Program-made: the position numbers and the translations under genes | Part shown: piece by piece, positions 22,033 to 28,115 of the stretch | Numbering within the stretch: the stretch's first letter is position 1 | Layout of the letters: each line of letters opens with the position of its first letter | Assembly: GCF_000195755.1 (NCBI RefSeq) | Contig: NC_005863.1 | Location: 170,302 to 202,301 of the forward strand | DNA: 32,000 bases | From: Nitratidesulfovibrio vulgaris str. Hildenborough | GTDB taxonomy: Bacteria > Desulfobacterota > Desulfovibrionia > Desulfovibrionales > Desulfovibrionaceae | Direction: 5' to 3' | Notes under the pieces: generated by a model | The model's database searches: none | Told to the model about the DNA's origin: nothing | Seen by the model: only the letters and a program-made list of their open reading frames with translations

Positions 22033-23274
22033 ATGATACGCAAGACCGGCCTGTGCCTCATTCCGCTGCTCATCCTCGCCGCATGGACGACCCTTGCGGG
22101 GCTGGCGCACCACGCGCCTGCCTTCAGTGCCGCCGAGGCCCTCGCCGCGCCCGGTCAGCCCGCAGCTGCCACTGACACACGCACGGGCCACGACAGCCCG
22201 CGCGACCCGGCGGCTGCCGCCGGCAAGGTCTGGCGCGTGGCCTACATCGAGGGTGGCCCCTACACCGACTACCAGCAGATACTGGCGGGCACGGTGCGCG
22301 GTCTCGCACGGCTGGGCATCATCCCCGATGGCAACGTCCCCGTACCGCAGAATTCCGAAAGCACCCGCGAGATGTGGCAATGGCTGGCAGACCACGCCAG
22401 CGGCGGCAGGTTGCAGTTCATCGCCGACGGCTACTACTCCGCCGACTGGAACCCCGACCGCCGCACCGCCAACCGCGACGCGCTGCTGAAGCGCCTCCGC
22501 GAGAAGGGCGACGTGGACATGGTCTTCGCCTTCGGCACATGGGCGGGGCTGGACATGGCCAACGACCAGCACAAGGTGCCCACCTTCTCCATGTCCGTCA
22601 CCGACGCGGTGGGCGCGGGCATCGTGAAGTCGGTGCAGGACTCGGGCTTCGACCACGTGCATGCCCAGCTCGAACCGGGCCGCTACGAACGGCAGCTTGC
22701 CGTCTTCCACGACGTGTTCCACTTCAAGCGGCTTGGCGTGCCCTTCGACGACCGCCCCGAGGGACGGGCCTCCATCGCCATGCCCGTCATCGAGAAGTCG
22801 GCCCGCGAACTCGGCTTCACCATCGTCCCCTGCCCCACCCGACTCGACGTGCCCGACCTCGACCTCGCCTTCGACAACCTGCGCCAGTGCGTCGAGACGC
22901 TCTCCACCACCTCCGACGCCATCTACCTGACCACCAACACGGGCATGCAGGGCAAGCGCATGGTCGAACTGCTGCAACCCGTCATCCGCGCGGGCATTCC
23001 CACCTTCTCGCAGAGCGGCCCCGAAGAGACGAAGCTGGGCGTGCTGCTCAGTCTCGCACAGGCCAGCTTCGACGACGTGGGCATGTTCGAGGCCGAGGCC
23101 GTGTCGCGCGTGCTCAGCGGTGCCAAGCCCCGCGAGGTGAGTCAGGTGTTCGAGGGGCCCCTCGGTCTTGCCATCAACCTGCGCATGGCCATGCTCATCG
23201 GCTGGAACCCGCCGTTCGAGATCCTCGCCGCCGTCGACGAAATCCACCAGCAGATCCGCAATGCCGAACAATAG
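22033..23274 (+). CDS. Periplasmic binding protein of the ABC_sub_bind (PF04392-like) family
   Basis: 413 aa with a signal peptide (MIRKTGLCLIPLLILAAWTTLAGLA). The blocks DMVFAFGTWAGLDMA...VPTFSMSVTDAVGAGIVKSV, DAIYLTTNTG and VLSGAKPREV...LAINLRMAMLIGWNPP are collinear with PF04392-type binding proteins as I recall them. Confidence 0.75.
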   Translation: MIRKTGLCLIPLLILAAWTTLAGLAHHAPAFSAAEALAAPGQPAAATDTRTGHDSPRDPAAAAGKVWRVAYIEGGPYTDYQQILAGTVRGLARLGIIPDGNVPVPQNSESTREMWQWLADHASGGRLQFIADGYYSADWNPDRRTANRDALLKRLREKGDVDMVFAFGTWAGLDMANDQHKVPTFSMSVTDAVGAGIVKSVQDSGFDHVHAQLEPGRYERQLAVFHDVFHFKRLGVPFDDRPEGRASIAMPVIEKSARELGFTIVPCPTRLDVPDLDLAFDNLRQCVETLSTTSDAIYLTTNTGMQGKRMVELLQPVIRAGIPTFSQSGPEETKLGVLLSLAQASFDDVGMFEAEAVSRVLSGAKPREVSQVFEGPLGLAINLRMAMLIGWNPPFEILAAVDEIHQQIRNAEQ

Positions 23275-26330: not shown

Positions 26331-28115
26331 ATGTTGCACACCCCAGACCTCGCGCCGCTATGGCGACTCTTTCCCGGCCTCAGGGCCATCCTCGAAACGT
26401 GGGAGGGGCGCACCCTCGGCGACGTGGCACAGGGCTTCCGCCAGCCCGGTGCCGTGCCTTCAGCGGCCGCGCTGGACGCCATGCACGACCTCGTGGCCCC
26501 CGTCCACGGCGAGGACGTGGCCCGCGCCCTGCGCCGCAGGCTGCACCTGTCACCCTCGGTGCTGGCGGCCAACCATCACGGCATCGAATGCTTCCCTGAA
26601 CTCGTGCAGGCCATCCATTTCTTCGGGCTGCCCGACCTTCTGGACGGGCTGGACGGGCTGGACGGGCTTGGCGGGCCGAATGCGCTCGGCGGGCCGGATG
26701 CGCTTGGCGGGCCGGATGCGCTCGGCGGGCCGAACGGTTTGGGCGGGCTGAAAGGGCCGGATGCGCCCGGCGGGCCATGCTGTTTGGGCGGGCCGGACTG
26801 TTCGGGCAAGCCACGCGGCGACGCACGGGGTGAGGTGCCGACGACGCCAGCGGCAGCGTCGACGTCTTCCCCCACACCGCCCCCGATGCCCACACCAGCG
26901 GCAGTGGGCACGGTCATCCCCGTCCTGTCGTGCACCACGGTGTCGTTGCAGAGTCAGGTCTACCCGCGCGGGCTGCTGCTGGCACGCCGCGCACCCGCCC
27001 CCGACGGGGCGCACTTCATGCGCCTGCCGCTCTTTCCCGCCTCCATGCAGGACACGGTGGTCTGCGCCGCCCCGCCCCTCACCCCGCAGCAGGTACGGGC
27101 CTCGCGCGGTCTCTGGCGCAAGCTGCCCCTGCGCCCGTGGGAACGCCGCGCCGCAGACGCGCTCATCGACGCCCATGTGGACATCCCCGAGGTCTACGCC
27201 CTGCCCCGCTTCGGTGAACAGGCCAGCCTCATCAACGCGCGGCTGTGCCGTCAGCGCTTTCCCGACGCGCCCCACGTCACCGTGGTGTACATCGAACTTG
27301 AACGCCTCGCGGCGCGGCTGCTGGCACGCGACCTCACCGACGGGGCGTCCATCGTCTCGCGGCTGCTCTTCGACCCGGCGGCGCGGCGGCGCATCCTGTC
27401 GCGTCTTGCCGGGACGCGGGGTTGCTGGACGGCCCACGCCTTCGACGCCACCACGACGCCCCTGCCCCGCACGGGCAGCAACGGCACGGCCTTCTTCTGG
27501 ACGGTGGACGCCACGGGCCGCCGCATCCCCCTGCGGCTGGACGACACCACACGCCCGGCGCTGACCAGCGGCGACCGACGCTTCGCCCTCGAACCCGAAG
27601 CGCTCGCCGGGGCGCTGCAAGAGGGGCTGCTCATACCGGGGCTCTTCTGCTCGTATGTGACGCTGGCCCTGCAACACGGTCTGCGCTGCCACGGGGGCAT
27701 GTTCTTCACCGAATACCTGCCCGCCATGCTCGACGCCGTGCACGACGTGCTTGGCGAATGCCCCGCACACTGCCGCGCCACGCCGCTGGCGGCCCTGCCC
27801 CTTTCGGTGCTCTTCGATGACCGGGGGACGGGGGACGACCGGGATGATGGGGCTTACGGCGGGCACCGAGACCACTGCACCGACCCGCGCCCCGCCGGGA
27901 CAGTGGAGATGTTCGCCGCAGGCGGCCTCGATGCCGGGAGGCTGCGCCACCTCGCCCGCACGCCCGCTGGCGCCGTGCTGCCGCTCAGCCTGCGTGAATG
28001 CTACGAGGAATGCGTGCCGTGTGGCGAACGCCCCGCCGGATGGGCGGAGCGTCTCGTGCCGCACGGGACATCGTGGCAGGGGGTGACGCTGCGCGTCAGC
28101 GACGACCCAGCGTGA
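26331..28115 (+). CDS. Hypothetical 594-aa protein (no family recognised)
   Basis: A long ORF co-oriented with the MFS gene and 31 nt downstream of it. A ~100-aa N-terminal domain, a repetitive Gly/Pro linker and a Pro/Thr/Ser tract are followed by a ~400-aa C-terminal region with ordinary globular composition. There is no clear SD before ATG 26331. Confidence 0.55.
   Translation: MLHTPDLAPLWRLFPGLRAILETWEGRTLGDVAQGFRQPGAVPSAAALDAMHDLVAPVHGEDVARALRRRLHLSPSVLAANHHGIECFPELVQAIHFFGLPDLLDGLDGLDGLGGPNALGGPDALGGPDALGGPNGLGGLKGPDAPGGPCCLGGPDCSGKPRGDARGEVPTTPAAASTSSPTPPPMPTPAAVGTVIPVLSCTTVSLQSQVYPRGLLLARRAPAPDGAHFMRLPLFPASMQDTVVCAAPPLTPQQVRASRGLWRKLPLRPWERRAADALIDAHVDIPEVYALPRFGEQASLINARLCRQRFPDAPHVTVVYIELERLAARLLARDLTDGASIVSRLLFDPAARRRILSRLAGTRGCWTAHAFDATTTPLPRTGSNGTAFFWTVDATGRRIPLRLDDTTRPALTSGDRRFALEPEALAGALQEGLLIPGLFCSYVTLALQHGLRCHGGMFFTEYLPAMLDAVHDVLGECPAHCRATPLAALPLSVLFDDRGTGDDRDDGAYGGHRDHCTDPRPAGTVEMFAAGGLDAGRLRHLARTPAGAVLPLSLRECYEECVPCGERPAGWAERLVPHGTSWQGVTLRVSDDPA
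26640..26801 (+). repeat. In-frame tandem repeats: 9-bp (LDG) x3, then about seven 18-bp units (LGGPNA/LGGPDA...)
   Basis: ctggacggg x3 (26640-26666) is followed by cttggcgggccgaatgcg / ctcggcgggccggatgcg / cttggcgggccggatgcg / ctcggcgggccgaacggt / ttgggcgggctgaaaggg ... ttgggcgggccggactgt. Confidence 0.85.

Follow-up and report, generated by a model that had tools for sequence, protein, structure and literature searches.

A stretch of 32,000 nucleotides from Nitratidesulfovibrio vulgaris str. Hildenborough (contig NC_005863.1, positions 170,302 to 202,301 of the forward strand; referred to here as the window) raises the question of what a periplasmic substrate-binding protein (SBP) of the PF04392 type does beside a major facilitator superfamily (MFS) protein and a third protein of no recognised family, in a place where no ATP-binding cassette (ABC) permease or ATPase adjoins it. 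The three genes, referred to here as the triad, are the following:

22033-23274, + strand: PF04392-type periplasmic binding protein, named SBPdiv (open reading frame (ORF) of 413 aa)
23261-26299, + strand: MFS protein (1012 aa counted from the ATG)
26331-28115, + strand: uncharacterised protein, named UNK (ORF of 594 aa)

The triad forms the constant part of a module that is widespread and undescribed, and in which a racemase, an acetyltransferase, inserted periplasmic PDC domains and a dCache-type sensor are frequent but dispensable. The reading tentatively favoured here, by analogy with other binding-protein-dependent carriers, is that the module mediates MFS uptake of an amino-acid-like compound handed over by the binding protein, with UNK as a coupled cytoplasmic enzyme.

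The SBPdiv and MFS ORFs overlap by 14 nt and a gap of 31 nt separates the MFS gene from UNK, although a TTG at 23168 is an alternative open start for the MFS ORF. The window is almost identical to plasmid pDEVAL01 of N. vulgaris RCH1 (apart from a length difference of 3 nt), where RefSeq annotates the same three coding sequences (DEVAL_RS16440, RS16445 and RS18990) as "ABC transporter substrate binding protein", "MFS transporter" and "hypothetical protein", the last one exceeding the UNK ORF of the window by one codon. A preliminary description of this DNA had proposed three tightly packed, co-oriented genes, and both the ORFs and the RefSeq annotation agree with it. A promoter scan of the region between 20.9 and 29.3 kb returned no promoters, and a terminator scan of the same region returned two terminator-like sites, both inside the MFS gene and equal to the chance rate. 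ABC ATPase motifs, kinases and cyclases are absent from all ORFs between 21 and 29 kb. Over a distance of about 10 kb around the triad there are no ABC components, kinases or cyclases either, and a histidine kinase of the 7TMR-DISM type (9116-11200), 11 kb away, is the only kinase that the window was found to encode.

Conservation of the arrangement was assessed in contigs encoding distant UNK homologues and in 47 genome loci found with an alignment of seven UNK sequences, all of which were scanned with hidden Markov models (HMMs) of the window genes and their orthologues; the counts given below refer to the 34 loci flanked on each side by 4 kb or more of sequence, which come from Thermodesulfobacteriota, Gammaproteobacteria and Bacillota. 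The MFS gene is adjacent to UNK in all 34, and SBPdiv lies within 6 kb of UNK in 31 of them, with at least two copies nearby in 20. Also encoded near UNK are a DapF-like epimerase (25 of the 34 loci), an ornithine-racemase-like pyridoxal-phosphate enzyme (3 loci) and a related dCache-type sensor (28 loci). The same three genes stand together in a shorter contig from Bacteroidota (L018). Their order is not constant:

Desulfovibrionaceae: SBP-MFS-UNK
Gammaproteobacteria and Desulfobacterales: epimerase-MFS-UNK-SBP-SBP
Syntrophobacteraceae: MFS-GNAT-like-UNK, a convergent SBP, then a racemase
Bacillota and Bacteroidota: UNK-SBP-MFS, preceded in locus L020 by an Alr/VanT-like racemase

Because the order differs between lineages, it is selection, and not the inheritance of a single operon, that keeps the triad together. 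UNK is often translationally coupled, as by an overlap of 4 nt in a locus from Desulfovibrionaceae (L001). Chance adjacency of the triad is excluded, and the earlier proposal that the three genes form a functional unit has passed the test of synteny across phyla.

SBPdiv matches the Pfam model PF04392 (ABC_sub_bind) above its cut-off (30.6 bits against 25.9, residues 154-387), contains a signal-like hydrophobic segment at its N-terminus (residues 7-25, by hydropathy) and is weakly similar to the proteins of PDB entries 3LFT and 6HNI. The NCBIfam model for TrpX, in contrast, gives it 28 bits against a cut-off of 390, and an HMM built from four module-linked copies of SBPdiv assigns 340-690 bits to orthologues and about 65 to a canonical PF04392 protein. 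By these profile scores SBPdiv is a bona fide but very divergent member of PF04392. It shares with the ABC-type binding proteins of the TrpX/PF04392 group the match at the Pfam gathering threshold, and it differs from them in its great divergence, in about 120 additional N-terminal residues and in having no ABC permease or ATPase alongside. Structures of PF04392 proteins show L-Trp, L-Tyr and L-Phe as bound ligands (PMC10443332). In the loci examined, SBPdiv was never observed beside an ABC permease or ATPase, and of 51 loci only 3 have ORFs containing both Walker A and LSGGQ motifs, always at more than 5 kb from the module, so the suggestion that this PF04392 protein is an orphan of its ABC partner holds here and in related loci.

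The MFS protein is divided into three parts:

23261-24733, + strand: N-terminal extension (residues 1-491; AlphaFold, hydropathy)
24749-25015, + strand: cytoplasmic low-complexity linker (residues 497-585)
25016-26299, + strand: MFS core of about 12 transmembrane (TM) helices (residues 586-1012; Pfam MFS_1)

The core matches MFS_1 over the whole model (113.9 bits against 33.4; residues 592-955, profile positions 1-347 of 347) and has an invariant aspartate in its TM1 (Asp600), so by its profile match the protein is a bona fide MFS member; among NCBIfam models the core shows only weak, mixed similarity to symporters (D-galactonate, aromatic acid, MhpT) and to efflux pumps (EmrB, SmvA, MdtG, Cmx). 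The extension, in the AlphaFold model of the whole protein (pTM 0.73), consists of one unit that appears twice, in which a TM helix running into a long helix is followed by a five-stranded PAS-like domain, a helix and a second TM helix. This gives the order TM1, PDC domain 1 (about residues 47-186), TM2, a low-complexity cytoplasmic loop, TM3, PDC domain 2 (about residues 281-455, interrupted by a low-complexity insert at 393-435) and TM4. Foldseek relates these domains, with probability 1.0 and target-normalised TM-scores of up to 0.66, to the periplasmic PDC domains of CitA, DcuS, DctB, KinD, WalK and LuxQ, and the two halves of the extension are homologous to each other (hhalign 98%, E 2.8e-13). 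The duplicated periplasmic sensor-like modules read earlier from the sequence are thus recovered as two TM-flanked PDC folds, and since the fold matches coincide with homologous halves, the extension resembles an intramolecular pseudo-dimer of the input module of a sensor kinase. Pfam Cache/PDC sequence models found no match in the MFS protein at E <= 0.01, and in the predicted model its PDC domains qualify as members of this family at the fold level only. The model and the positive-inside rule predict a protein of 16 TM helices with both termini in the cytoplasm and both PDC domains in the periplasm.

The first 500 residues or so of the MFS protein are conserved among its orthologues, the PDC domains being the variable element. 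The orthologues of Amphritea, Psychromonas and Competibacter have an extension made of four TM helices with short loops and no PDC inserts, and that of Marinobacterium keeps a single periplasmic domain. The four TM helices are therefore the conserved feature of the extension, the PDC domains being lineage-specific inserts. Three residues of the extension are invariant (D462, T465 and E476), of which Glu476 is a membrane-embedded acidic residue in TM4. Two ideas about the extension were set aside. One was that it is a portable sensor, shared with kinases or cyclases, but a profile of the extension retrieved 97 proteins, all of them MFS fusions (760-860 aa) or fragments, with no kinase and no cyclase among them. 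Docking of SBPdiv on the PDC domains was considered too; the PDC-less loci of Amphritea, Psychromonas and Competibacter still carry two or three binding proteins, which weakens this idea, so that such docking cannot be the general mechanism.

UNK matched nothing in Pfam or NCBIfam, and a profile search of PDB sequences returned nothing at E <= 10. A word-seeded search found 42 homologues, with identities down to 29%, all of them unnamed and devoid of Pfam domains, and a profile search of 1.84 billion cluster representatives (clusters at 50% identity) returned 1,282 at E <= 1e-3 and 664 at E <= 1e-30, nearly all of 480-560 aa. None of 28 family members examined with Pfam matched a model, one of them having an N-terminal extension with a sub-threshold GNAT-like match. 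The AlphaFold model of UNK, built with the family alignment, has a pTM of 0.83 and 350 residues at pLDDT >= 90, the disordered parts being limited to residues 112-190 and 501-516, and Foldseek found no neighbour for it in PDB (best E 0.95) or BFVD, with nothing below E 0.9 in either. The third protein had been described as belonging to no recognised family, and neither databases nor predicted fold have given it one; the suspicion that its ORF might be non-coding does not stand, because it encodes a conserved protein family.

Among 143 diverse representatives of this family (median identity to the window protein 28%, with full-length conservation reaching down to 23%), the positions conserved in at least 90% are H82, G84, Q93, P212, G214, Q297, N302, E324, D334, S340, C365-W366, G385, F389-W390, P436, C453, G455-G456, Y462-L463 and G523. 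Hydropathy predicts no TM segment in UNK, and it has no P-loop or Rossmann glycine motif, which makes a hydrolase, isomerase or lyase a better fit than an ATP-dependent ligase. UNK is probably a cytoplasmic enzyme with a polar catalytic constellation of His, Glu/Asp, Cys and Tyr, as its conserved residues suggest.

Several more specific assignments for UNK were rejected or found unlikely. An ATP-dependent ligase is made unlikely by the missing nucleotide-binding motifs just mentioned. An IucA/IucC-type (NRPS-independent, NIS) siderophore synthetase acting with an MFS exporter is not supported by any Pfam match in the 28 members, IucA_IucC and FhuF domains included, nor by any sequence or fold match in PDB. 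A radical SAM enzyme was suggested by CYEECVPC (residues 557-564), and the CxxxCxxC pattern is not conserved in homologues; this motif (27999-28009) is confined to the UNK copies of N. vulgaris and is probably fortuitous.

Both the MFS and the UNK genes contain in-frame tandem repeats of 9, 18 and 36 nt (23897-23946, 24793-24827 and 26640-26807), which encode low-complexity loops predicted to be disordered (GQTGHAGQTGQ..., GINDINGISGI and GLDGLDGLGGPNALGGPDALGG...). In UNK they make up the following insert:

26664-26900, + strand: low-complexity insert of UNK (residues 112-190), encoded by in-frame 9/18/36-nt tandem repeats

UNK ranges from 558 to 600 aa and the MFS protein from 990 to 1012 aa among N. 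vulgaris strains, and these strain-to-strain differences in length indicate that the repeat-encoded loops of both proteins are hypervariable.

The genes that accompany the module elsewhere give hints about its substrate. Racemases of three unrelated types are found beside it (DapF-like, ornithine-racemase-like and Alr/VanT-like). The DapF-like protein falls just under the equivalog level of TIGR00652 (114.2 against a cut-off of 114.65), and most of eight aligned DapF-like sequences have both catalytic cysteine motifs (CGNG and ACGTG/ACGSG), the exceptions being L019, which lacks the first Cys, and L028, which lacks the Ala preceding the second motif. In one locus (L052, 3840-7478) the DapF-like epimerase and the MFS protein form a single chain of 1212 aa, the epimerase being attached at the cytoplasmic N-terminus of the carrier. 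N-acetyltransferases of two unrelated types also occur: a GNAT-like one, sometimes fused to UNK (as at the N-terminus of the 763-aa protein P0040; L006, 8001-10292), and an AAC(3)-like one, which in Desulfuromonas is encoded between UNK and the binding protein.

The sensors linked to the module are dCache_2-HAMP histidine kinases (some of them hybrids with REC-Hpt) or dCache-HAMP-SpoIIE (PP2C) phosphatases, so that the output domain changes from lineage to lineage (histidine kinase, hybrid histidine kinase or SpoIIE) while the periplasmic domain stays related. The kinases are accompanied by cyclic di-GMP (c-di-GMP) enzymes of the REC-GGDEF-EAL, REC-GGDEF or GGDEF-REC-HD-GYP type. Some loci without any dCache sensor retain SBPdiv, often as two or three paralogues, and since SBPdiv persists both without this sensor and without PDC inserts, the MFS protein is its only constant membrane partner.

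The uptake reading builds on this last point. To our knowledge, every pairing of a binding protein with a transporter (ABC importers, tripartite ATP-independent periplasmic (TRAP) systems and tripartite tricarboxylate transporters (TTT)) is an importer, and this, together with the constancy of the MFS partner and a layout like that of TRAP and TTT systems, is why inward transport is favoured. SBPdiv would capture in the periplasm an amino-acid-like ligand, probably amine-bearing or of the D- or diamino-acid type, and would pass it, presumably by direct contact, to the 16-TM MFS protein, whose four-helix extension (with PDC inserts in this lineage) may have an accessory or docking role, as has been proposed for the small 4-TM subunit of TRAP and TTT systems. 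UNK would convert the imported compound on its arrival in the cytoplasm, with the racemase and sometimes the N-acetyltransferase acting beside it where they are present. A dCache sensor, usually encoded nearby as a kinase or a PP2C phosphatase, would signal the presence of this imported compound to the c-di-GMP network or, in Desulfovibrionaceae, to a type III secretion locus. The class of ligand is suggested by the interchange of racemases and acetyltransferases, the amino acids bound by PF04392 proteins and the aspartate in TM1, all of which point to an amine-bearing, amino-acid-like substrate whose stereochemistry matters. That an epimerase can be fused to the MFS protein speaks for chemistry at the carrier's inner face, and the polar residues kept over the 143 representatives, in a protein without TM segments, are the reason for reading UNK as the coupled enzyme.

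Several observations weigh against this proposal, which is drawn from genomic context and predicted structures. A binding-protein-dependent MFS carrier is not described in the literature searched. The low-score similarity of the MFS core to both symporters and drug-efflux antiporters, together with its glycine-rich, antiporter-like TM5, leaves room for export. The racemase, the acetyltransferase and UNK could equally constitute a short biosynthetic pathway, and UNK may be an adaptor instead of an enzyme. The constant company of signalling genes (dCache kinases, c-di-GMP enzymes and PP2C phosphatases) suits a role in signalling at least as well as one in nutrition. Finally, no racemase adjoins the module in N. 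vulgaris, which makes the idea of a D-amino acid an extrapolation from other lineages. A more complete version of the uptake reading, namely a new transporter class made of an MFS carrier with a fused 4-TM module (bearing PDC inserts in many lineages), dedicated PF04392-like binding proteins and an obligate enzyme, of a predicted fold unlike any solved structure, acting on a D- or diamino-acid-type compound, with a co-evolving dCache sensor that reads this compound and controls c-di-GMP turnover or, in Desulfovibrionaceae, type III secretion, is somewhat less likely still.

The closest architectural parallels are TRAP (DctPQM) and TTT (TctABC) transporters, which share with the module a binding protein without ABC ATPase, a secondary carrier of about 12 TM helices and an additional 4-TM element, which in the module is fused to the carrier just as Q and M are fused in some TRAP systems; operons with paralogous binding proteins are likewise shared. 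The P/Q/M architecture of TRAP transporters has been described (PMC9352664). The carrier of the module, however, is an MFS protein and not a DctM/TctA protein, its binding protein is PF04392-like and not DctP/TctC, its 4-TM element has no detectable similarity to DctQ/TctB and often carries PDC inserts, and nothing in TRAP and TTT systems corresponds to UNK, the obligate partner in the cytoplasm, in addition to which the dependence on the binding protein is putative in the module. Because the protein families are different (MFS_1 and PF04392 in Pfam), the module is not a member of TRAP or TTT and the likeness is only architectural.

LuxP-LuxQ and TorT-TorS resemble the module in that a binding protein is encoded beside a membrane protein with tandem periplasmic PAS/PDC folds, although the membrane partner in the module ends in an MFS carrier and not in a kinase, each PDC domain lies between a TM pair of its own, and many orthologues do without PDC domains; with only MFS_1 and no transmitter domain after the PDC module, it is not a sensor of the LuxPQ type. 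The sCache-like PDC domains of CitA, DcuS and DctB have in common with the MFS extension the predicted fold and the location between TM helices, whereas here both copies are in one chain that is fused to a transporter, and there is no Pfam Cache/PDC match. In LplT-Aas, an MFS lysophospholipid carrier is obligately paired, and sometimes fused, with an acyltransferase at the cytoplasmic face that acts on its cargo. This pairing of an MFS carrier with an enzyme acting on the transported molecule is similar to that proposed here, but LplT-Aas has no sequence or fold relation to the module, no binding protein and a lipid substrate. MFS proteins act as sensors in UhpC-UhpB and in yeast Snf3/Rgt2, and a nearby sensor kinase gene does exist in loci related to that of the window; the window itself, however, has no adjacent kinase gene, and the PDC domains, the SBP and UNK have no counterpart in those systems. 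Neither this cluster nor any binding-protein-dependent MFS turned up in full-text literature searches, and the databases searched contained no matching system, in line with the preliminary description, whose authoring model knew of none. The module is rated as lying outside the known kinds of system, and it may be a binding-protein-dependent transporter of a new kind, with a new enzyme coupled to it.

The alternative that survives best, unlikely but deserving attention, reverses the direction of transport. The racemase would make a D-amino acid, UNK (with the acetyltransferase in some lineages) would convert it into a signal, the MFS protein would export this signal, and the binding proteins, the dCache sensor or both would perceive it, thereby setting c-di-GMP levels or, in Desulfovibrionaceae, type III secretion. 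The dCache kinases or phosphatases found in 28 of the 34 loci, their REC-GGDEF-EAL, REC-GGDEF and GGDEF-REC-HD-GYP partners and the variation of the output domain around a related periplasmic domain are all consistent with such a self-made signal, as is the partial similarity of the MFS core to the efflux families SmvA, EmrB, MdtG and Cmx; a binding protein that feeds a tandem-PAS receptor has a precedent in LuxP-LuxQ, and LuxQ is among the fold matches of the extension. However, dCache domains normally bind their ligands directly, without a binding protein, and the binding proteins of the module, often in two or three copies, persist in loci that have no sensor. UNK, moreover, lacks the nucleotide-binding motif that a ligase or synthetase would require, and several lineages, N. 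vulgaris included, have no racemase with which to make the signal.

Less probable still, and quite so, is a transceptor, the idea of the preliminary description, taken as a signalling complex with little or no net transport and comparable to UhpC or to yeast Snf3/Rgt2. In it the SBP and the PDC domains would sense a ligand in the periplasm, the MFS body would relay its presence by changing conformation, and UNK would serve in the cytoplasm as output or adaptor. With its 4-TM bundle, the intramolecular pseudo-dimer of two CitA/DcuS-like PDC folds is indeed reminiscent of a dimeric sensor kinase, UNK is always adjacent and often translationally coupled, and the neighbourhoods of the module are rich in signalling genes. 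Many orthologues that retain UNK and the binding proteins nevertheless have no PDC inserts, the preservation of MFS motifs and of the invariant aspartate of TM1 is what one expects of an active carrier, the fusion of racemase and MFS protein points to the passage of a substrate, and UNK has no recognisable signalling domain. That the triad consists of three unrelated neighbours, with the 594-aa ORF as a spurious high-GC frame, has in its favour only the missing annotation and the repeat-encoded low-complexity insert, and is refuted by conservation down to 23% identity, 1,282 clusters, a confident structure model and the adjacency of the MFS gene in every one of the 34 loci.

With the uptake reading retained, the signalling company of the module in Desulfovibrionaceae deserves a separate account, because it bears on the missing kinase and cyclase. 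Upstream of the triad the window encodes two proteins:

17047-20973, + strand: DUF3626 protein of 1241-1308 aa (RefSeq start 17248; Pfam, RefSeq)
20984-21454, + strand: CesT-family chaperone of a type III secretion system (T3SS), directly upstream of the triad (Pfam, RefSeq)

These two genes resemble a T3SS effector/chaperone pair and belong to the context of the module, not to its core. In three other loci from Desulfovibrionaceae (L001, L007 and L008) the order is CesT, a large unannotated protein, SBP, MFS and UNK, and the triad converges on a gene for a dCache-like-HAMP-SpoIIE phosphatase, which is also present in a short contig from Desulfomicrobium (L009). In L001 (9543-11540) and L008 this phosphatase gene ends the operon of the T3SS export apparatus, L001 having a sigma-54 activator as well. 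The N. vulgaris phosphatase (DEVAL_RS16180) is found on pDEVAL01 (L055, 128127-130301), about 57 kb from the triad and the effector-chaperone pair on the same plasmid, where it is the last gene of an operon with the order sctV-S-T-U, sigma-54 regulator, hypothetical protein and SpoIIE phosphatase; its periplasmic domain is related to those of module-linked dCache sensors from other phyla. This is the T3SS operon under the control of sigma-54/DVUA0100 that has been described previously (PMC4641369). Since the sensor phosphatase is on the same plasmid, 57 kb off, the missing kinase or cyclase reflects a local rearrangement and is not a property of the system. The reported absence of ABC components, kinases and cyclases is therefore accurate for the region between 21 and 29 kb, whereas for kinases and cyclases it is a peculiarity of this replicon. 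The arrangement suggests that a periplasmic cue controls type III secretion by partner switching through the SpoIIE phosphatase.

Binding-protein-dependent uptake is, as far as we know, restricted to ABC, TRAP and TTT systems, so that an MFS-based version, if real, would be a fourth architecture, and the annotation of "orphan" binding proteins and of long MFS proteins would change. UNK is a candidate for a new enzyme fold, for which the neighbouring racemases and N-acetyltransferases are a genomic handle on the substrate, and the links to dCache sensors, c-di-GMP enzymes and the T3SS of Desulfovibrionaceae suggest an unrecognised lifestyle-switching cue in sulfate reducers and marine Gammaproteobacteria. 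A library for random barcode transposon-site sequencing (RB-TnSeq) exists for the host, a genetically tractable model, so these hypotheses are directly testable.

A second binding protein gene is convergent with the triad:

28308-29099 (28308-29045 from the RefSeq start), - strand: SBP_bac_3 binding protein (Pfam, 73.5 bits)

It had been pointed out earlier as a second orphan, of family 3, next to the cluster; the gene exists, but it shows no link to the module in the relatives inspected, where the gene after UNK encodes the dCache-like-HAMP-SpoIIE phosphatase or a further SBPdiv. It was therefore rejected as a member and probably lies outside the module. The remaining features of the window are a type I-C CRISPR-Cas locus (spanning 548-7420), an autotransporter gene and, downstream of the module, a toxin-antitoxin pair, in addition to a ZIP transporter gene:

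548-2593: Cas8c/Csd1
2596-3468: Cas7
3470-4108: Cas4
4092-5123: Cas1
5597-7420: CRISPR array with 28 copies of the 32-nt repeat GTCGCCCCCCACGCGGGGGCGTGGATTGAAAC
11364-13529, - strand: autotransporter
29557-29949: HipB-like helix-turn-helix antitoxin
29939-31234: HipA-family toxin

Between the autotransporter gene and the next ORFs, the GC content falls to 0.50 (13001-14000), compared with 0.58-0.72 elsewhere.

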